From assembly GCF_003334815.1 (NCBI RefSeq), contig NZ_QOWO01000003.1: a DNA stretch of 64,000 bases; one strand, written 5' to 3'. Below, one piece after another: positions 3,802-11,169 of this stretch. The notes beneath the pieces are model-generated. The model was not told where the DNA came from, made no database searches, and saw only the letters and a program-made list of their open reading frames with translations. Source of the DNA: Escherichia coli (GTDB lineage Bacteria > Pseudomonadota > Gammaproteobacteria > Enterobacterales > Enterobacteriaceae). The translations under genes and the position numbers were made by a program. Position 1 is the first letter of the stretch. Every line of letters starts with the position of its first letter.

Positions 3802-3836
3802 AAAAACGCCGACCATTGGTCGGCGTTTTGCTTTTG
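3802..3836. terminator. Bidirectional Rho-independent terminator between rplI (+) and the convergent TRAP solute-binding gene (-)
   Basis: aaaaaCGCCGACCattgGGTCGGCGttttgctttt: GC-rich hairpin flanked by an A-tract upstream and a T-tract downstream, so it can terminate in both directions. Confidence 0.75.
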
Positions 3837-3892: not shown

Positions 3893-4864
3893 TTACTTAG
3901 CTGCCTGAATATCAGCCAGCATTGGGGCAAGGGCTGGGTTGTCCTTAGCGAAGTTTGCGTACATTGGCTGTACTTTCTCGATAAACGGAGCTTTATCTAC
4001 CTGGTAGACTTTCACGCCCATTTTATCCAGTTTTGCAAATTCTTGTTTCTCTTCCTCGCTCCACAAGTCTTTCATGTAGCTCATTGATTCTTTAGCTGCT
4101 TTTAATATAACTGCCTGATTTTCCTGGCTAAGTTTATCAAACGCAGCATTGCTCATCAGAACCACATCGGGAACCATAGTGTGTTCGTCAAGGCTGAAGG
4201 ATTTTGCCACTTCACCGTGACGCATGGTAGTCAGCGCCATCACGCTGTTTTCTGCCATATCGACCACACCCTGCTGTAAGGCTGTATACAACTCGCCGTA
4301 ATCCAGTGGCGTCGGGTTACCGCCCATGACTTTGATCATTTCAACTGCGCCAGGGCTTGGCTGGACACGGACTTTCATGCCTTTCAGATCGTCTGGTTTC
4401 AGTACTGGTTTATTGCCATAGAAACTGCGGGCGCCTCCATCATAAAAAGTCAGCCCGAAATAACCTTTGCTTTTCGTTGAGTCGAGGATTTTTCTCCCGA
4501 TATCGCCCTGCATGACCTGATAATAATGATCACGATCGCGGAACAAATAAGGCAGGCTAAATAATTTATAGGAATTTTCAAATGCTTCCATTTCTGCCGC
4601 ATTGGTTTTTACCAGGGGAATAGCGCCAGAACGAATCAGCTCCATTGTTTCTCGTTGAGTACCCAATGTTCCATTTGGATAAATACGAATAGTAATATCA
4701 CCGTTAGAGTACTCTTTGCTCTTTTTCGCAAAGAACTCCATCGCTTTATGAACAGGATGAGACTTATCCTGATTATGACTCAGTTTTAATGTCACTGCCC
4801 AGGACTGGCTTGCGGATAACATAAGAACAGCACCGATAATGCCAGCGGATACTTTTATTTTCAT
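3893..4864 (-). CDS. TRAP transporter periplasmic solute-binding protein, DctP family (substrate unknown)
   Basis: 323-aa ORF with signal peptide (MKIKVSAGIIGAVLMLSASQSWA); length and composition typical of DctP-type receptors; last gene of the 8-gene minus-strand operon, after the DctM and DctQ genes. Confidence 0.8.
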   Translation of the reverse strand: MKIKVSAGIIGAVLMLSASQSWAVTLKLSHNQDKSHPVHKAMEFFAKKSKEYSNGDITIRIYPNGTLGTQRETMELIRSGAIPLVKTNAAEMEAFENSYKLFSLPYLFRDRDHYYQVMQGDIGRKILDSTKSKGYFGLTFYDGGARSFYGNKPVLKPDDLKGMKVRVQPSPGAVEMIKVMGGNPTPLDYGELYTALQQGVVDMAENSVMALTTMRHGEVAKSFSLDEHTMVPDVVLMSNAAFDKLSQENQAVILKAAKESMSYMKDLWSEEEKQEFAKLDKMGVKVYQVDKAPFIEKVQPMYANFAKDNPALAPMLADIQAAK

Positions 4865-4916: not shown

Positions 4917-6218
4917 TCAGTAGCCCAGTGCTCTTGGCAATGCCATACTGATTTGCGGAATATAGGTCACCATTGCCAGCACCAATACCATCACGGCATA
5001 GAATGGCAGCATAGGTTTGATAATTTTATTAATCGGTAATTTAGATACACTACAACCGACAAATAACACACTGCCTACAGGCGGAGTACAAATACCGATA
5101 CACATGTTCAGTACCATGACAATACCAAAGTGAATCGGGTCCATGCCCAGTTCGGTGACAACCGGTAAAAATATCGGCGTAAAAATCAGTACCGCCGGTG
5201 TCATATCCATAAAAGTGCCGATAATCAACAGGATAATATTGATAATAAGCAGGATTATTATTGGGTTGTCAGAAATAGTGTTAAGCAAATCGAGAATCAG
5301 GAAGGGAACGTCAGCGTTTGACATTGCCCATGACATACCCATCGAAGAACCAATTAATAACAAGACAATTGCAGTGGTAATAACGGATTCCAGAAATATT
5401 TTAGGTAAATCTTTAACTGAGATTTCACGATAAAGAACCAGTGCAAGGAAAAGGGTATAAATTACTGCAATTGCGGAGGCCTCTGTCGGGGTAAAAATAC
5501 CACTTAATACACCCCCCATAATTAAAATAATCAGGAAAATACTGGGGATAGCCATCCATATCGCAACGCCAGCCTGGCGTAAAGTCGGGCGTTCTGGCTT
5601 TGGATAACCGCGACGTACCGCGATAATACCGGCTATTACCATCAGTGCCAGACCCAGCAAAATTCCCGGAACATAACCCGCCAGGAACAGTGCGGCAATA
5701 GAAGTACCACCACTGACCAGTGAATAGACGATTAACGTATTACTTGGTGGAATAAGCAAACCCGTCGGGGCAGAGGCAACGTTAACCGCAGTACTGAATG
5801 CCGGGTCGTAACCCTCTTTAACCTGTTGCGGATGCATGACGCCGCCCATCGCAGCCGCCGAAGCCACGGCTGAACCAGAAATTGCCCCGAACAGCATATT
5901 GGCGAGAATATTACAGTGGGCAAGTGAGCCTGGCAGACGACCGCCGAGAATACGGGCAAAGTTGATTAATCGTCGCGCTATTCCTCCATGGTTCATAATG
6001 TTGCCAGACAAGATAAAAAATGGGATTGCCAACAACGTAAAACTATCTAACCCGGAGGCTAACTTTTGGGAAACCACACTCAATGCTGAGTTGAAATCGA
6101 GTTGTGTGGAAATTGATGCCAGTGTCGATAAACCAATGGCATAAACAATAGGTACACCTAATGCCAACATAAAAAAGAAGGCACCAAATAACACAATAAT
6201 CGGTAACCAGTAATCCAT
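4917..6218 (-). CDS. TRAP transporter large permease, DctM family
   Basis: 433-aa highly hydrophobic polytopic ORF of typical DctM size, immediately upstream of the DctP-like gene. Confidence 0.85.
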   Translation of the reverse strand: MDYWLPIIVLFGAFFFMLALGVPIVYAIGLSTLASISTQLDFNSALSVVSQKLASGLDSFTLLAIPFFILSGNIMNHGGIARRLINFARILGGRLPGSLAHCNILANMLFGAISGSAVASAAAMGGVMHPQQVKEGYDPAFSTAVNVASAPTGLLIPPSNTLIVYSLVSGGTSIAALFLAGYVPGILLGLALMVIAGIIAVRRGYPKPERPTLRQAGVAIWMAIPSIFLIILIMGGVLSGIFTPTEASAIAVIYTLFLALVLYREISVKDLPKIFLESVITTAIVLLLIGSSMGMSWAMSNADVPFLILDLLNTISDNPIIILLIINIILLIIGTFMDMTPAVLIFTPIFLPVVTELGMDPIHFGIVMVLNMCIGICTPPVGSVLFVGCSVSKLPINKIIKPMLPFYAVMVLVLAMVTYIPQISMALPRALGY

Positions 6219-6260: not shown

Positions 6261-6761
6261 TTAGAGTGGTTGTTTAAGTTCGGTTAAAACCATATCTATG
6301 GTGTATATAATAATAAGTACACCACTAATCGGGATGCTCATATAGATATATCCCATTTGCCAGCCTAAAGCGGGCGAGGTCTGACCTGAATCGAATGTAT
6401 CCATCGTTAATAGCCCACCACCATATACCATAATGATGGTTGCGAAGATAATAACGATAATCTGAATACACAAAAATAAATGACGTCGGGCTTTTCCTTT
6501 CAGCATCATAGGTAGCAGGTCAATCGCCAGATGCCGGTTTTGCCCTGCGGTGTATGCCCCACCAAAAAGTCCAAGACAAATAAAGAGCAAACGGCTGAGT
6601 TCATCTGTAAAAATACTGGGACTAGTAAATATAAATCGTGCAGCCACCTGCCACGTCACACATGCCACGATGATCGCCAAAATGGTAATGTTCAATGCTG
6701 CAAGCAGAGCATTAATAGATCTAATTATATTTCGCATAGTGATTAACCTTTGCAATATCAT
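6261..6761 (-). CDS. TRAP transporter small permease, DctQ family
   Basis: 166-aa hydrophobic ORF with about 4 predicted TM segments, located upstream of the DctM gene; its ATG overlaps the stop of the upstream flavoprotein gene (ATGA). Confidence 0.7.
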   Translation of the reverse strand: MILQRLITMRNIIRSINALLAALNITILAIIVACVTWQVAARFIFTSPSIFTDELSRLLFICLGLFGGAYTAGQNRHLAIDLLPMMLKGKARRHLFLCIQIIVIIFATIIMVYGGGLLTMDTFDSGQTSPALGWQMGYIYMSIPISGVLIIIYTIDMVLTELKQPL

Positions 6762-8839
6762 TCATCCTGTGGCTGGTAAATTGTCCCATTAAGAAAACCA
6801 GGCCAGTTTTTTTCAAACCAAATACCTCGGATAATAGGAAACTCACGAACAGGTGTTTCTCTGACGTGAAAGATACCGTTGCAATAATGAATAAGTAGTT
6901 TATCTTTTTTATCCTCAGTACGCTCTGAACGAAAGCGCCAGGCATCACAAAAACCATTTCGTGTTTGCGGAATAGAATTTCCATCCCTGTCGAGAATAAT
7001 ACGTGCTCCCCGACTACCACCACCTGCGTCAATATAATGCGTTAATTGCGTTAATACGGCGGCAGAAGTCAGTGCCATATGCCGCCACATAAACAGCTCG
7101 GCAACTTCACCCACATGTTTGATAGCCAATCCATGCCGTTGGACAAATTCGCTCAATAGCAGGGCATCGCGAGTGGCGCGTCGGACTTTATCGGCATGGC
7201 AAATAAATCCCGCATGGTCAGACATTCGTGCCTGAATTTTTTCTCTCACAACCGACAACGGCATCCCGGTCCCGTTATCGTGCGCCTGAGTAATGATCTC
7301 TCTTATAGAAGCCAGTGTAGGAGCTACCAGCTGTGCTATATCTCCATCAATATTCCGCTTTTGCGTGCAACCAATAAAACGTGCCAGACGAACAGCAAAA
7401 ACCTGCCCGGCATTCAATGCTGCACCACCAGGGCGAGTGACGCCGTGTGTGCCAGCAACTTCCCCCACGGCGAAACAGCCGGGCAGGGAGGTTTGTCCCC
7501 AGATATCCACTTCAATGCCGCCATTCATATGCTGATTATTCATGGCAAACTGCAAAGGCTGTGTGGTGAGATCGTAACCGTGCATCTTATACAGCGAGAT
7601 AGACAGCGGATTCATTCGTTGCAGCCGTTCGATGGGCGATGGTGCCAGAGCGTCGTTATTTTCCAGATACGCGCGAACGTCGTCGTCCAGTCGATCTAAT
7701 GAGAACGGCAGGTCACCCGGCACCGCTTCAGGATTGCGATTGAAATCCATAAATACCTGACGCCCTGATTGCTGCTCTTGCGCTACTGCCATATCTAACA
7801 AGCTGGAGCCAAAATCCATCACCCGAGTGGCGTGGAACGGCCACTGATAGCCTTTACGGAAAATGTTTGAAGCCAGCTCCTGGGTGGTGCGATAGTAATC
7901 CGCGAGGAAGTTATACTCGTTACCCTCAGCATCCACGGAATAGATATACGGGATCACCTGTACATAGGTGCCGGATAAATTCCACGGAAACGTGCTACGC
8001 GGCGTGCCTATACCAAACTGGCTTTCGGTCAGATTGGTTAGCGTCAGGCCTTCCTCCAGCGCCAGCCCCAGCGAGCCAAAACATTTGTGTGGGTACACAC
8101 TGTCGCGATAAAGCTCGCCAGGCCCTCCTGTTGCCAGTACCACATTGGGCGCAGTCACAATTGCCAGCCCCCAAGGGTTATGGGCGCGATGACCGGTCGC
8201 GAGGATTGCCCCCGCAACACGGTCTTCGCCGTTTTCGTCACGCTGATGCAGCAGTTTAATCACTGTTGCACTGGTCAACACTGGAATGGCGAGGCGCTGT
8301 ACTTCTTCCAACAGCACTTTCACCATTAACCTTGAGGTACGCGGCCCACACGAGGTTGCACGCCCGGCTTCGTCATGGTCGGTTTGATAACGAAGAATCG
8401 CGCCATAGCGATCTTCCGGTAATTCCAGACCAAGATATTGCAACCCGCCAAGAGTGTGCAGAGAACCTACCGCTTCGACATAAGCGGTGTCGTGATCCAT
8501 CGCCCCACCGCTCGCCAGTGCCTCTGCCAGTTTGGTGAAGTTGTCGCCGTTGCCCGCGGTAGCGGCGGTAAACAGTGTCTGTTTATCGGAACCAGAACAT
8601 GCCGACGTCCCCATATATAACCCGGCGGTGGCGATCAGCACATTTTGCTGGCGGCGTTTAAGTTCCACAGCTGCACGCAGCCCGGCTGCACCACTGCCGA
8701 CTACCAGGGCATCTGTTTGCCAGAGTGGGTAATCAACACCGTCTACCGTGACAACCCATGCGGGCTCTGCCTGTGCAAAACCCTTTGGGAAAGTAACGTG
8801 CGTCAGCGCATCAAGGATGGTGTCATCAAGCTGACTCAT
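6758..8839 (-). CDS. FAD-dependent oxidoreductase of the fumarate reductase/succinate dehydrogenase/L-aspartate oxidase flavoprotein superfamily (stand-alone; substrate unknown)
   Basis: 693-aa ORF; dinucleotide-binding motif DALVVGSGAAGLRAAVEL after an N-terminal extension of about 40 aa; VLATGGPGELY and HMNGGIEVD...FAVGEVAGTHGVTRPGGAALNAGQVFAV resemble the SdhA/FrdA/NadB FAD and active-site segments; 4-nt ATGA overlaps at both ends. Confidence 0.65.
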   Translation of the reverse strand: MSQLDDTILDALTHVTFPKGFAQAEPAWVVTVDGVDYPLWQTDALVVGSGAAGLRAAVELKRRQQNVLIATAGLYMGTSACSGSDKQTLFTAATAGNGDNFTKLAEALASGGAMDHDTAYVEAVGSLHTLGGLQYLGLELPEDRYGAILRYQTDHDEAGRATSCGPRTSRLMVKVLLEEVQRLAIPVLTSATVIKLLHQRDENGEDRVAGAILATGHRAHNPWGLAIVTAPNVVLATGGPGELYRDSVYPHKCFGSLGLALEEGLTLTNLTESQFGIGTPRSTFPWNLSGTYVQVIPYIYSVDAEGNEYNFLADYYRTTQELASNIFRKGYQWPFHATRVMDFGSSLLDMAVAQEQQSGRQVFMDFNRNPEAVPGDLPFSLDRLDDDVRAYLENNDALAPSPIERLQRMNPLSISLYKMHGYDLTTQPLQFAMNNQHMNGGIEVDIWGQTSLPGCFAVGEVAGTHGVTRPGGAALNAGQVFAVRLARFIGCTQKRNIDGDIAQLVAPTLASIREIITQAHDNGTGMPLSVVREKIQARMSDHAGFICHADKVRRATRDALLLSEFVQRHGLAIKHVGEVAELFMWRHMALTSAAVLTQLTHYIDAGGGSRGARIILDRDGNSIPQTRNGFCDAWRFRSERTEDKKDKLLIHYCNGIFHVRETPVREFPIIRGIWFEKNWPGFLNGTIYQPQDE

Positions 8840-10377
8840 GCATCCTCCATCGGCGTAAACAGGCTACTTTCCATCAGGCGTGGGTGCTTGATAATTGGAC
8901 GGAAAGCCATATACGGCAGAATGTCGCGCTCAATCTCCACACCCGGCGCGATTTCAATTAATTCAACGCCTTCTGCCGTTAACTGGAATACTGCGCGTTC
9001 AGTGATATACAACACTTCCTGACCACTTTGCTGTGCGTAGGCGGCGCTAAAAGTGATTTTTTCCACCTTGGTAACCAGTTTAGGGATTTGACCTGACTGG
9101 GCGATATGCAAGCCATCTGGTGTTATATCGATCTTGCTGCCTTTAGCGTCGAACGTGCCGCAGAACACCACTTTACGGGCATTTTGCGCAATTTCGAGAA
9201 ATCCGCCGGGGCCAATCAGATTGCCATTGAGATGGGAGACGTTGACGTTACCGTACTGATCCATCTCTCCCATGCCGAGGAAGGTGATATCGATCCCTCC
9301 GCCACTGTAGAACTCAAATTGATCGAGTGATGGAATAATGGCATCGGCGTTGCGGGCGCAGCCGAAAAACGCATCATCCAGCATCATGCCGTTATGTACG
9401 CCTTGCTCGACGCTCAGCCATAAACTTTGGTAAGGAACGCCTTCGCGCAGCGCTACTCCTGGAATGCCGCCGGGAATACCAAAGCCAAAGTTGGTTGAAG
9501 CGCCAGCTACCAGTTCGCGTGCTGCCCGACGGGCAATCAGGCGACGTACCGGATGACTAACCAGTTCAATAGCGTCGTTAGAACTCAGACGGCGATGTTG
9601 GCCGCTGATGGTCAGGTCGTAACCGCCAAGATAGGTTTGTGGTTGTTCGCGGTGTTCAACGATGCCATCAACCAGAATGCCCGGTAATTTGACCCGGCGT
9701 GGTTCAATCGCGCCAGCTTCCAGCACATCGCGTACCTGTACGAACACTTTGCCGCCGCTGTTGTGTGCTGCCAGCGCCATGGAATAGCTATCCATATCAA
9801 TCGCTTCTTCTTCAAGGCTGACGTTGCCTCGAGGATCGGCATAAGTGCCACGCAAAATCGCGTAATCCACTTTGAAAGGGCGATAACGAAGTTTGGTTTC
9901 ACCGTCGATTTCAATCAGTTCTACCAGCTCGTCGGTAGTGCATTCATTCGACTTACCGCCGCCATTGCGTGGATCAACAAACGATCCCAGCCCAACGTGG
10001 GTAAAAAGCCCCGGACGTCCGGCGCCGATCTCCCGTAGCAGTGCCTGAATCACGCCACCAGGAAAGCAGTAGGCTTCAATCGTGTTATTTTTTACCAGCG
10101 CCTGCATTTTGGGCGACCAGGTAAAGTGCCCGGCAATAATGCGTTTGAGCATCTCTGCGTGCGCAAAACGATTAGTGCCTTTGCAGTCGCGATCGCCAAT
10201 ACCCAGCGAGTGGATTAGCGTCAGGTCGCGAGGGTGTCCGGTTTGCAGGAAACGCGCTTCAATAGCAGCCAGAATATGGTCGGCTTCCACCATACCGCCG
10301 CCGTTACCGCTAATAGCAATAGTCGCACCGTCCTGAATTTGCGCCGCCAGTGCCTCGGCGGTTGTTATCTTACGCAT
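8836..10377 (-). CDS. family I CoA-transferase, fused alpha/beta subunits (YdiF-like acyl-CoA:carboxylate CoA-transferase)
   Basis: 513-aa ORF with architecture and local similarity to E. coli YdiF as I recall it (N-terminal GNGGG... region; SVEQGVHNG segment at the position of the catalytic-Glu motif; C-terminal YITERAVF...LIEIAPGVE); AAGGAA RBS upstream. Confidence 0.75.
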   Translation of the reverse strand: MRKITTAEALAAQIQDGATIAISGNGGGMVEADHILAAIEARFLQTGHPRDLTLIHSLGIGDRDCKGTNRFAHAEMLKRIIAGHFTWSPKMQALVKNNTIEAYCFPGGVIQALLREIGAGRPGLFTHVGLGSFVDPRNGGGKSNECTTDELVELIEIDGETKLRYRPFKVDYAILRGTYADPRGNVSLEEEAIDMDSYSMALAAHNSGGKVFVQVRDVLEAGAIEPRRVKLPGILVDGIVEHREQPQTYLGGYDLTISGQHRRLSSNDAIELVSHPVRRLIARRAARELVAGASTNFGFGIPGGIPGVALREGVPYQSLWLSVEQGVHNGMMLDDAFFGCARNADAIIPSLDQFEFYSGGGIDITFLGMGEMDQYGNVNVSHLNGNLIGPGGFLEIAQNARKVVFCGTFDAKGSKIDITPDGLHIAQSGQIPKLVTKVEKITFSAAYAQQSGQEVLYITERAVFQLTAEGVELIEIAPGVEIERDILPYMAFRPIIKHPRLMESSLFTPMEDA

Positions 10378-10386
10378 ACAATTTCC

Positions 10387-11169
10387 TTATTGATTATGGA
10401 AGCTCACGCTACTTTTTTCGGCAAAGGCGCGCGTCGCCTGCTGGCAATCCTGAGTGGCAGACATTAATCCGGCCAGTAGCTGGTGCGGGTAATCGGCATG
10501 TTTATTTTCCAGTGCCAGAATCAGTTGCTTAATATGCGCCAGTGCCACCGGGCCGCATTTTTCCAGCTGCGCTAACTGGTTCGCCATCCAGCTTTCCACC
10601 TGTTCTTTTTCTACCACTTCATCAATTAAATTCGCCGCCTGGGCTTCCTGCGCCGTCAGGCGTTTACCCAGCATCAGCATCTGGCGACCGACCACCGGAC
10701 CAACCTGATTAAGCACACGTTCAATGCCCATCCAGCCAGGCACCATGCCGAGCATCACTTCCGGGTTAGAGAATTTCGCGCCGGGGCGGGCAATACGAAT
10801 ATCGCAGCACAAGGCCAGTTCAATACCACCGCCGATGGTATGACCGTTGAGATTCGCAACGGTTAATTGGGGTAAGTTTCGCAGGCGATTAAAAACGTCA
10901 TTACCGCGTTTAATCCATTTTCTGCCCATATCTAATGGCGAATAGGCCGACCACGATTTAATATCGCCGCCCGCACAAAAGAATTTATCGCCGGTTGCCG
11001 TTAATTCGACTAATCGTAATGTGGTGTCGTTTTCAATTTCATTTAAATAATGGTCGAGAGATTCGATCATCTCTTCGTTAATAGCATGACATTTATCTTC
11101 ACGGTTCAATGTCAGGCGGCAGGAAGCCGCCGCTCTGCTGAACAGAACGGGTTGGTCACTCATGATCAT
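10387..11169 (-). CDS. enoyl-CoA hydratase/isomerase (crotonase superfamily)
   Basis: 260-aa ORF; crotonase signature LNGHTIGGGIELALCCD followed by FSNPEVMLGMVPG, with Glu residues at both canonical catalytic positions. Confidence 0.8.
   Translation of the reverse strand: MIMSDQPVLFSRAAASCRLTLNREDKCHAINEEMIESLDHYLNEIENDTTLRLVELTATGDKFFCAGGDIKSWSAYSPLDMGRKWIKRGNDVFNRLRNLPQLTVANLNGHTIGGGIELALCCDIRIARPGAKFSNPEVMLGMVPGWMGIERVLNQVGPVVGRQMLMLGKRLTAQEAQAANLIDEVVEKEQVESWMANQLAQLEKCGPVALAHIKQLILALENKHADYPHQLLAGLMSATQDCQQATRAFAEKSSVSFHNQ

Follow-up and report, generated by a model that had tools for sequence, protein, structure and literature searches.

The well-studied SdhA/FrdA/NadB superfamily of flavoproteins contains a clade of hundreds of sequence clusters, which has a rebuilt active site and is covered by no curated model. 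Here we describe a member of this clade from a 64,000-nucleotide stretch of Escherichia coli DNA (contig NZ_QOWO01000003.1; "the window"): the 693-residue protein encoded at positions 6758 to 8839 on the minus strand, for which we use the working name FADp. Judged by its sequence, FADp belongs to a sister clade of the SdhA/FrdA/NadB flavoproteins that is large, distinct and uncharacterised. It is very probably a cytoplasmic oxidoreductase that binds FAD non-covalently and serves as the flavin redox enzyme in an accessory operon for sugar-acid catabolism, most likely of a hexuronate-type acid; the specific reaction scheme proposed below is tentative. The fold and the superfamily were known already; of the clade, of the pattern of its active site and of its operon setting we found no description in the resources searched, NCBIfam release 20 and the literature among them. 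To our knowledge, none of the established bacterial sugar-acid pathways pairs coenzyme A (CoA) thioesters with an SdhA-type flavoprotein.

Closest described systems

The flavoprotein subunits of fumarate reductase and succinate dehydrogenase (FrdA/SdhA; E. coli FrdA, PDB 1kf6 and 5vpn) share with FADp the four-part fold, the GxGxxG motif, the His355/Arg390 pair (FrdA numbering) and the ESRG motif. FADp differs from them in sequence (17-18% identity), in having Thr78 and Gly276 at two key positions, in lacking Arg287, and in carrying an 8-residue DKQT insertion and an N-terminal addition of 36-38 residues. It also lacks iron-sulfur (Fe-S) and anchor subunits, and is encoded in a sugar-acid operon. 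L-aspartate oxidase (NadB; PDB 1chu, 5kxj) belongs to the same superfamily and is, like FADp, a soluble, single-subunit protein with non-covalent FAD, whereas FADp is approximately 150 residues longer, has not kept the catalytic residues of the NadB capping domain and has no NAD-biosynthesis genes nearby.

The functional analogy that we favour is with flavocytochrome c3, the urocanate, acrylate and cinnamate reductases, KstD and TcuA, stand-alone FAD_binding_2 proteins whose C=C chemistry takes place beside a carboxylate or ketone. Enzymes of these types are devoid of the helical and C-terminal domains, and usually possess a haem, an FMN_bind domain or the partner TcuB. FADp has no haem or FMN_bind domain and no TcuB partner.

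A CoA-transferase and a crotonase are encoded next to a flavoprotein in the FADp operon, as they are in the CaiB/CaiD/CaiA (carnitine), AcuN/AcuK (acrylate) and Anaerostipes oxcT-ecdH-acaD systems, whose substrates are small or hydroxylated acids. CaiB/CaiD and AcuN/AcuK carry out CoA-recycling (de)hydration on pairs of β-hydroxy acid and enoate. CaiB and AcuN are class III CoA-transferases, whereas the CoA-transferase of the FADp operon is of class I. The flavoproteins of these systems have the acyl-CoA dehydrogenase (ACAD) fold; FADp has the SdhA fold, which is unrelated to ACADs, and the E. coli operon lacks an electron transfer flavoprotein (ETF). The Anaerostipes module works on 3-oxopropionate, a cyclitol-derived fragment (PMC8355322).

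Finally, the FMN-[4Fe-4S]-FAD arrangement of 2,4-dienoyl-CoA reductase, clostridial enoate reductase and BaiCD resembles that of a natural fusion and of 14 gene pairs in which an old yellow enzyme (OYE)-like protein accompanies FADp (see below). The described enzymes, however, have an NAD(P)H-binding reductase domain as their FAD module, whereas FADp is SdhA-like and substrate-binding; the E. coli operon has no such partner.

The FADp gene and its immediate locus

The gene was delimited from its open reading frame (ORF), which runs from ATG to stop, from the translation and from RefSeq:

6758..8839, minus strand: FADp, 693-residue flavoprotein, FAD expected to be non-covalent

An earlier note on this DNA, made from the sequence alone, had given the position and length of this ORF exactly and left the strand unstated; the plus strand in that frame is crowded with stops. 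The motifs and the C-terminal sequence that it had quoted were all found in the translation: GSGAAG (48-53), VLATGGPGELY (233-243), HMNGGIEVD (437-445), FAVGEVAG (456-463) and RPGGAALN (469-476). RefSeq annotates the identical coding sequence as 'FAD-dependent oxidoreductase' (WP_000080339.1).

On the minus strand the genes form a tight co-directional block with the 5′ to 3′ order short-chain dehydrogenase/reductase (SDR)-TIM barrel-crotonase-CoA-transferase-FADp-DctQ-DctM-DctP, the last three encoding a transporter of the tripartite ATP-independent periplasmic (TRAP) type. The CoA-transferase stop and the FADp start overlap by 4 bp (8836-8839), whereas the RefSeq start of dctQ (6737) leaves a 20-bp gap after FADp instead of an overlap. 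No Fe-S or membrane-anchor subunit gene adjoins FADp, whose neighbours are the CoA-transferase upstream and the TRAP small permease downstream, in agreement with the earlier reading; FADp is therefore likely to be soluble and cytoplasmic. The true frdABCD lies approximately 45 kb from FADp in the same genome. In the E. coli operon we found no gene for an ACAD, a thiolase or an ETF.

At the 4-bp overlap some E. coli records have a single ORF with CoA_trans and FAD_binding_2 domains (P0002, 1078 residues; P0034, 973 residues; P0086, 1043 residues). These candidate CoA-transferase-FADp fusions may reflect fusion, deletion or a sequencing frameshift.

FADp belongs to a separate clade of the superfamily

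Pfam matched residues 43-475 of FADp to FAD_binding_2 (PF00890, model positions 1-414 of 414, E 8.4e-28), well beyond what chance would give, and detected no further domain. The AlphaFold2 (AF2) model, computed with 47 diverse homologues as input, had a pLDDT of 91.7 and a pTM of 0.93. It consists of a Rossmann FAD domain with an inserted capping domain, followed by a helical and a C-terminal domain. When the model was compared with solved structures by Foldseek, FrdA/SdhA ranked at the top (E 1e-29; TM-scores of 0.67 for the query and 0.79 for the target; 17-18% identity over 660-700 aligned columns), followed by the α subunit of adenosine 5′-phosphosulfate (APS) or 3′-phosphoadenosine 5′-phosphosulfate (PAPS) reductase and by NadB. 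Flavocytochrome c3, UrdA and KstD types were absent among the top 50. Because of this ranking, we place FADp in the four-domain SdhA/FrdA/NadB/AprA branch. The superfamily placement made before from motifs thus stands, and the profile and structure prediction check that had been proposed for it assigns FADp to this branch as a separate clade.

Curated models and cut-offs were taken from NCBIfam release 20. FADp scored 126.5 bits with TfrA (NF004900, cut-off 718), 100.7 bits with NadB (TIGR00551, cut-off 452.75), 80.7 bits with SdhA/FrdA (TIGR01812, cut-off 567), 37 bits with flavocytochrome c (TIGR01813, cut-off 285) and 24.3 bits with AprA (NF005331, cut-off 557), i.e. 3- to 20-fold under every curated cut-off. 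These scores bear out the expectation that FADp is not an ortholog of NadB, FrdA/SdhA or AprA. With APS/PAPS reductase α its resemblance is limited to the lower-ranked fold match, and no AprB-like gene is present. The best PDB match by sequence had an E of 5e-9; by sequence profile the nearest solved proteins were L-aspartate oxidases (NadB, E 6e-29). A search for orthology to a characterised enzyme in NCBIfam, Pfam, PDB sequences and folds, AFDB50 and source names returned only superfamily-level or generic matches. The source names of E. coli FADp and of its operon partners are all generic, some reading 'succinate dehydrogenase flavoprotein subunit'.

An HMMER scan of 1.84 billion cluster representatives yielded 3309 relatives of FADp at E<=1e-3, and 422 clusters (50% identity) at E<=1e-30. 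Most of the relatives have 640-700 residues, and their alignments extend from about residue 30 as far as the C-terminus. AFDB50 contains many near-identical folds (TM-score 0.85-0.96), e.g. from Succinatimonas, Enterocloster bolteae, Halanaerobium, Treponema and Coriobacterium, labelled only 'FAD-binding protein' or 'oxidoreductase'. In the literature we found no description of FADp, of the TIM-barrel relatives 7VPF/SMc04130 (see below) or of the gene combination of this operon.

Active-site residues and terminal extensions

Forty-seven diverse members of the clade (33-79% identity) were aligned. Residue equivalences were derived from an hhalign profile alignment with E. coli FrdA (probability 99.4) and from HMMER alignments with NadB; the two agree over the FAD domain. 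Invariant in all 47 sequences, as motifs that were not seen in FrdA or NadB, are G77-T-S79...G83-S-D-K-Q-T88, Y151-x-T-D154, W286-N-x-S-G290, Q294, K329-G-Y-x-W-P334, S345-S346...D349, Q436-H-x-N-G-G441, R469-P-G-G472 and S-R610-G. GSDKQT, WNLSG and KGYQWPF are motifs of the clade's own. FADp shows full-length similarity to the clade, including the N-terminal hairpin, the C-terminal tail and the motifs GSDKQT, WNLSG, KGYQWPF, QHxNGG and RPGG.

In the dinucleotide-binding GxGxxG motif G48 and G50 are invariant. The same is true of His437 and Arg469, which correspond to the substrate-carboxylate clamp of FrdA (His355/Arg390) and NadB (His351/Arg386). FrdA His44, which carries the covalent FAD (8α-N3-histidyl), aligns with Thr78 of FADp, and there is no His in the G77-T88 stretch; the FAD of FADp is therefore expected to be non-covalent. 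Together with the lack of an Fe-S or anchor partner, this upholds the earlier view of a soluble enzyme that is without the FAD-attaching His and binds FAD non-covalently. An 8-residue insertion with the invariant D85-K86-Q87-T88 lies beside the flavin in the clade; it follows the residues that correspond to FrdA Gly50-Gly51.

The capping domain is different. FrdA His232 ('QYHPT') is replaced by the invariant Gly276 of the clade ('QFGxxS/T'), and the NadB sequence 'QFHPT' aligns with 'QFGIGT'. The proton donor of FrdA, Arg287, falls in a gap within the invariant Gly-Ser345-Ser346, and Thr244 (of Thr244/Glu245) aligns, with low confidence, with Q294. Equivalents of the catalytic His244 and Arg290 of NadB are absent. 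Between residues 276 and 400 of the capping domain, the 47 sequences have no invariant Arg or His, the structural Arg405 excepted; irrespective of the FrdA alignment, Lys329 is the sole invariant basic catalytic candidate. It had been said that missing catalytic residues would refute the earlier reading: the carboxylate-clamping pair is kept, but the counterparts of His232 and Arg287 are not. Since the latter two are missing, fumarate-reductase chemistry should not be assumed for FADp. The capping domain is rich in aromatic residues and in Ser, Asn and Gln, and from this composition we infer that it may form a pocket for a sugar-like group.

Residue 39 of FADp aligns with residue 3 of FrdA, which gives an N-terminal addition of approximately 36-38 residues, close to the 40 estimated before. 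It includes a predicted β-hairpin (28-41) common to most family members. The C-terminal extension, put at some 60 residues, was overstated. The counterpart of the FrdA/NadB motif ESRG is GGGSRG (608-611), and the FrdA alignment reaches residue 652; 83 residues follow the SRG motif in FADp versus roughly 70 in FrdA. Only the final 40 residues or so have no FrdA counterpart and are clade-specific, being conserved family-wide (P668, F675, E676, W679) and confidently modelled; the remainder is a normal C-terminal domain.

The clade is found in sugar-acid operons

Neighbourhoods were scanned in one genome per species, giving 80 loci (78 non-redundant), in which ORFs were called and the neighbours within 10 kb of FADp were clustered. 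The loci span Enterobacterales, Rhizobiaceae, Devosia, Rhodobacteraceae, Betaproteobacteria, Planctomycetota, Lentisphaerota, Verrucomicrobiota, Bacillota and others. The recurrent neighbours, with the number of the 78 loci in which they were found, are the following (GMC, glucose-methanol-choline; KDG, 2-keto-3-deoxygluconate; KDPG, 2-keto-3-deoxy-6-phosphogluconate; ABC, ATP-binding cassette):

PRK12745-type SDR, 37-93% identical to the E. coli SDR: 29 loci, the commonest neighbour across phyla
Sugar ABC transporter ATPase: 22 loci
LacI regulators: 21 loci
Two GMC oxidoreductases: 20-21 loci each
Gfo/Idh/MocA protein resembling levoglucosan dehydrogenase (LgdA-like) over its full length, 310 bits: 17 loci
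TIM-barrel isomerase: 14 loci
KDG-kinase-like PfkB genes: 12 and 6 loci
KDPG-aldolase-like gene: 12 loci
Second Gfo/Idh/MocA family: 9 loci
OYE-like FMN/4Fe-4S proteins: 8 and 6 loci
CoA-transferase and crotonase: 8 loci each in the 10-kb analysis

The last pair is undercounted at 10 kb, because in a Rhizobium operon it lies approximately 13 kb from FADp. This operon, on plasmid pRCCGE531c of Rhizobium sp. CCGE531 (L089, 1-18138; PGAP annotation), is a 16-gene, single-strand sugar operon with the order LacI-Gfo-CoA-transferase (YdiF-like)-crotonase-aldehyde dehydrogenase-sugar ABC and, in the remainder, GMC-GMC-Gfo-FADp-kinase (KDG-kinase-like)-class I aldolase. We found no description of its pathway as a whole. 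A CoA-transferase and a crotonase accompany FADp also in Devosia, in a betaproteobacterium and in a Desulfobacterales metagenome-assembled genome (MAG).

Several loci have no CoA enzymes at all within 10 kb of FADp. In Brenneria TetR/SDR-isomerase-FADp are joined by a PcaK-like transporter of the major facilitator superfamily (MFS), the SDR being 74% and the isomerase 71% identical to those of E. coli, and CoA enzymes are absent. Pseudescherichia, Mangrovibacter and Phytobacter have TetR/SDR-Gfo-isomerase-MFS-FADp. A Lentisphaeria MAG carries isomerase-Gfo-SDR-FADp between the housekeeping genes clpPX and ksgA; Phycisphaerae have OYE/Fe-S/GltD fusion-SDR-KDPG aldolase-BNR_4 protein-FADp-KDG kinase, and a Peptococcaceae MAG has LacI-OYE-Zn-dependent alcohol dehydrogenase (Zn-ADH)-FADp-Gfo-Gfo. 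The clade thus resides in carbohydrate and sugar-acid catabolic operons, not in fatty-acid operons, and the CoA-transferase/crotonase pair is a companion that recurs but is not always there. To describe the gene as lying inside a CoA-thioester operon, as had been done from the E. coli locus, was to mis-frame it.

The two loci richest in CoA enzymes (L017 and L079) encode bona fide ACADs. In the betaproteobacterial one (L017) the order is CoA-transferase-crotonase-TRAP-MaoC-ACAD (AcrC-like)-EtfBA-isomerase-FADp, and its ACAD scores 303 bits with cyclohexane-1-carbonyl-CoA dehydrogenase. FADp is no ACAD replacement where ACADs occur, which argues against the suggestion that it stands in for an acyl-CoA dehydrogenase.

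In the metagenome representative P0150 (1084 residues) an OYE-like FMN/4Fe-4S domain (1 to about 445) is naturally fused to a full FADp, and separate OYE-type genes adjoin FADp in 14 loci. The fusion and the 14 pairs imply an FMN-[4Fe-4S]-FAD electron path. In anaerobes FADp is coupled, physically or genetically, to an Fe-S flavoprotein that could supply or drain electrons.

Operon partners and transporter

The other genes of the E. coli operon are:

12025..12816, minus strand: SDR of PRK12745 type (NCBIfam PRK12745, 417 bits, cut-off 250)
11173..12015, minus strand: xylose-isomerase-like TIM barrel (AP_endonuc_2), annotated 'sugar phosphate isomerase/epimerase', with PDB matches
10387..11163, minus strand: crotonase-family enoyl-CoA hydratase (NCBIfam short-chain enoyl-CoA hydratase, 151 bits)
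8836..10377, minus strand: family-I CoA-transferase, YdiF/Pct/FadX-like (PDB YdiF 2ahu, E 1e-113)
6261..6737, minus strand: TRAP small permease DctQ (NCBIfam YiaM-like; annotation and start from RefSeq)
4917..6218, minus strand: TRAP large permease DctM (TIGR00786, 458 bits, over cut-off)
3893..4864, minus strand: TRAP solute-binding protein DctP, hexuronate-binder-like (PDB matches 4ovr, 4x8r, 4n8y, 4n15)

The SDR carries the annotation '3-ketoacyl reductase', and its PDB matches 4da9 and 4one are both uncharacterised. The TIM barrel, for which the AF2 model had a pLDDT of 88, is closest to 3qc0/3ju2 (SMc04130; E 1e-84, 50% identity) and to 7vpf (40%), which are all uncharacterised 'sugar isomerases'; IolI, the ketose 3-epimerases, YcjR and UlaE are farther away. 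An assignment of its function by structure was rejected, the nearest PDB entries being labelled 'putative sugar isomerases'. The top PDB match of the crotonase is 3-hydroxypropionyl-CoA dehydratase (5zai, E 4e-40); what we take to be both catalytic Glu motifs (GGGIELAL and NPEVMLG) are present, as compared by eye with the rat enzyme. RefSeq names the CoA-transferase 'acyl CoA:acetate/3-ketoacid CoA transferase' and some sources propionate CoA-transferase; its score with the NCBIfam FadX model (383 bits) is under the cut-off. PADLOC found no anti-phage defence matches among the five operon enzymes.

TRAP DctP proteins bind carboxylates. The nearest PDB entries of the island DctP are 4ovr, 4x8r, 4n8y and 4n15 (E 7e-71 to 6e-66); the ligand in the 4x8r structure is glucuronate and that in 4n8y galacturonate (PMC11668362). 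In Salmonella STM3169 glucuronate is contacted by Asn35, Gln36, Glu74, Arg150, Arg170, Asn210 and Asp237 (PMC7660916). Mapped by eye with a constant offset of 4, these residues correspond to Asn31, Gln32, Gln70, Arg146, Arg166, Asn206 and Asp233 of the island DctP, which by this mapping retains six of the seven contacts, the change being Glu74 to Gln70. Arg146, Arg166 and Asn206 are shared by the aligned uronate binders. The MFS transporter of the corresponding Klebsiella and Salmonella islands (see below) belongs to the galactonate/hexuronate (anion:cation symporter, ACS) subfamily (315 bits). Because the DctP contacts are kept and this MFS transporter is of the galactonate/hexuronate type, our best guess from the sequences is that the substrate of the FADp operon is a hexuronate-like sugar acid. 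It may be other than plain glucuronate, which E. coli handles via Uxa/Uxu.

Proposed role and alternatives

Substrate class, redox site, direction and partner-enzyme roles are what we infer from the above. His437 and Arg469 would hold the substrate carboxylate over flavin N5, as the pair does in FrdA, and a hydride and a proton would move across the adjoining Cα-Cβ bond (C5-C4 in a hexuronate), in a desaturation or an ene-reduction. Acid/base catalysis would be provided not by Arg287/His232 but by the clade's own invariants, D85/K86 in the 8-residue insertion by the flavin, and Q294, K329, Y331 and D349 in the remodelled capping domain. A free acid would be a likelier substrate than a CoA ester, because many loci are without CoA enzymes. 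The CoA-transferase and the crotonase would (de)hydrate the same acid or the one after it, as a β-hydroxy acid/enoate pair and with recycling of CoA, like CaiB/CaiD and AcuN/AcuK; alternatively they might deal with a small acid fragment of the 3-oxo or 3-hydroxy type, as Anaerostipes oxcT-ecdH does. The SDR would perform a keto-reduction and the TIM barrel an isomerisation or epimerisation. Electrons would pass to or from the Fe-S flavoprotein where one is encoded nearby, and in E. coli to another acceptor (quinone, O2) or from another donor. Aerobic hosts without such a partner suggest an oxidase or dehydrogenase; from the OYE/Fe-S fusions of anaerobes one would expect electrons to be fed in or shuttled internally. 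The role of enoate reductase or desaturase proposed in the earlier note is plausible.

While the general assignment of FADp is very probable, we give this specific scheme somewhat less than an even chance, because no unique pathway needing all five enzymes could be derived. Several points weigh against it. A full route that leads from a hexuronate into central metabolism, and whose chemistry demands all five enzymes, could not be written. The translational coupling of the CoA-transferase and FADp in enterobacteria is compatible with a CoA-ester substrate. The Brenneria MFS transporter is of the aromatic-acid type (PcaK/aromatic acid:H+ symporter (AAHS)-like, 369 bits), which leaves room for quinate or shikimate. 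The partner sets vary by lineage (SDR and isomerase; Gfo and kinase; OYE, SDR and aldolase), and the clade may not be isofunctional; the genes of the related loci come from a simple ORF caller and from flanks of at most 10 kb. The alignment of the capping domain with FrdA is of low confidence, and a substitute for Arg287 may come from elsewhere in the FADp sequence.

Four pathways were drawn up and dropped. Dehydration of a uronyl-CoA to an unsaturated uronate followed by KduI/KduD-like steps left FADp without a role; converting an unsaturated uronate to a 4-deoxyuronate by reduction was a detour compared with spontaneous formation of 5-keto-4-deoxyuronate (DKI); decarboxylation of a 4-keto-uronate to a pentulose did not explain the KDG-kinase and aldolase neighbours; and oxidative cleavage of a lactyl-ether sugar had no support. 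A CoA-dependent deoxyribonate cluster described in Klebsiella michiganensis (Price 2019) proved to be a different locus, with a CoA-synthetase, a β-hydroxyacyl-CoA dehydrogenase, a thiolase and a glycerate kinase.

One alternative is that the substrates of FADp are CoA thioesters. It would then be an enoyl-CoA reductase, serving like CaiA as an electron sink under anaerobic conditions, or an α,β-desaturase that replaces an ACAD, in a β-oxidation-like cycle with the CoA-transferase, the crotonase and the SDR. The overlap of the CoA-transferase stop with the FADp start, which recurs in Klebsiella and Salmonella, would fit this, as would the company of both CoA enzymes in Rhizobium, Devosia, the betaproteobacterium and the Desulfobacterales MAG, and an operon that holds a CoA-transferase, a crotonase and a '3-ketoacyl reductase' yet no ACAD. 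We nevertheless consider it unlikely: many loci, Brenneria and Lentisphaeria among them, have no CoA enzyme within 10 kb, L017 and L079 have ACADs of their own (L017 also an ETF), the operon is devoid of a thiolase, and the conserved His/Arg pair is a carboxylate clamp in FrdA and NadB.

FADp could also be a NadB-like oxidase of the Cα-OH or Cα-NH2 group beside the clamped carboxylate (e.g. converting a uronate or aldonate to a 2-keto acid), with O2, quinone or fumarate as electron acceptor. L-aspartate oxidases are its nearest solved relatives by profile, the E. coli operon encodes no redox partner, and the downstream KDG-kinase-like and aldolase-like genes of many loci would suit a 2-keto-acid product. 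The loss of the His244/Arg290 equivalents and the many members in strict anaerobes, fused to or beside Fe-S flavoproteins, make this quite unlikely.

It is less probable again that the clade is heterogeneous, the substrate of its E. coli/Brenneria subgroup being no hexuronate but a carboxylate of the hydroaromatic or cyclitol kind (quinate, shikimate or a related ring acid). The PcaK/AAHS-like transporter of Brenneria, the match of the L017 ACAD to cyclohexane-1-carbonyl-CoA dehydrogenase and the recurrence of Iol-type neighbours (Gfo/IolG-like, IolI-like TIM barrel, IolM-like Zn-ADH, IolC-like kinase) point in this direction; the glucuronate-binding residues of the E. coli DctP, the galactonate/hexuronate-type MFS of Klebsiella and Salmonella, and the KDG-kinase-like and KDPG-aldolase-like genes of many loci argue for a hexuronate.

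That FADp is an ordinary but divergent FrdA/SdhA, L-aspartate oxidase or APS-reductase α, as its fold, identical in kind, and the 'succinate dehydrogenase flavoprotein subunit' annotation of some sources might suggest, or else a decaying gene, is already contradicted by scores 3- to 20-fold under the curated cut-offs, by the missing catalytic residues, by the lack of FrdB/SdhB/AprB or nadA/nadC partners nearby, and by an intact, length-conserved reading frame.

Returning to the hexuronate-type role, FADp probably marks an undescribed catabolic route in at least a quarter of E. coli strains. It is doubtful, though conceivable, that its activity is a novel one, namely the flavin-dependent C4-C5 dehydrogenation or ene-reduction of hexuronates or of lyase-derived unsaturated uronates, within a sugar-acid route with transient CoA-thioester (de)hydration. 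If this were true, a CoA-assisted route would be common to extra-intestinal and commensal E. coli, Klebsiella, Salmonella, rhizobia, roseobacters and marine Planctomycetota and Verrucomicrobiota, and in anaerobes a novel route would be wired to an OYE-type Fe-S flavoprotein. Identification of the substrate, which is within reach of a short panel of commercially or enzymatically obtainable sugar acids, would give a function to the whole operon family and define the nutrient niche at rplI-ytfB for B2-type E. coli, Klebsiella and Salmonella. It could also extend by a step the models of how marine and gut bacteria turn over polysaccharides.

Distribution and history of the island

The operon is part of an accessory block between rplI and ytfB on the E. 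coli chromosome. Of 5426 complete E. coli genomes, 1452 or more (at least 27%) contain the whole island (at least 80% coverage), a lower bound because a variant at approximately 88% identity also exists. At the corresponding position, ytfB...rplI, Klebsiella oxytoca/grimontii and Salmonella enterica also carry the TetR gene and the five enzyme genes, with the CoA-transferase-FADp arrangement of E. coli repeated and with an MFS transporter (L002/L004, 12127-13405) where E. coli has TRAP. FADp itself is intact and length-conserved across Klebsiella and Salmonella (77-79% identity), and its 90% cluster has 4164 members. Either of the functions suggested earlier for FADp had been called unusual for E. 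coli; this holds relative to K-12, but not for a species in which over a quarter of the complete genomes carry the island, and the island occupies the same site in Klebsiella and Salmonella.

The G+C content of the TRAP genes (0.40-0.45) is lower than that of the enzyme genes (0.52-0.56), a difference in composition which suggests that they were acquired separately. The shared locus and enzymes, the different transporters and the G+C contrast thus point to an enzyme core that is old in Enterobacteriaceae and to a transporter module that has been exchanged. The TetR gene is full-length in 3131 of the 5426 complete genomes, and laboratory-type strains hold its 3′ half only. This remnant beside ytfB looks like a deletion scar of the island; it may match the 'ytfA' fragment of K-12, as we presume.

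Regulator and flanking signals

Upstream of the operon are:

13029..13676, plus strand: divergent TetR/AcrR regulator (RefSeq; NCBIfam TetR-family matches all under cut-off)
12885..12906, no strand: inverted repeat ATCAACCAACCAGATGGTTGAT between the TetR and SDR genes, picked up by the terminator scan

The TetR gene adjoins the operon also in Klebsiella, Salmonella, Brenneria and Pseudescherichia, and its product is presumed to be the repressor of the FADp operon. The inverted repeat is near-perfect and lies in an intergenic region of 212 bp; it is a likely candidate for the operator of the divergent repressor. Promoter and terminator scans gave site numbers not above those of shuffled controls. 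At 3803-3829, between the convergent rplI and dctP, there is a strong hairpin with a 12-bp stem flanked by A and T runs, a probable bidirectional terminator at the right-hand edge of the island.

Mechanically called ORF starts extend beyond the RefSeq starts in three genes: the SDR (TTG at 12858 versus ATG at 12816), the crotonase (11169 versus 11163) and DctQ (6761 versus 6737). A Shine-Dalgarno-like AAGAGAG run lies upstream of the SDR ATG at 12816.

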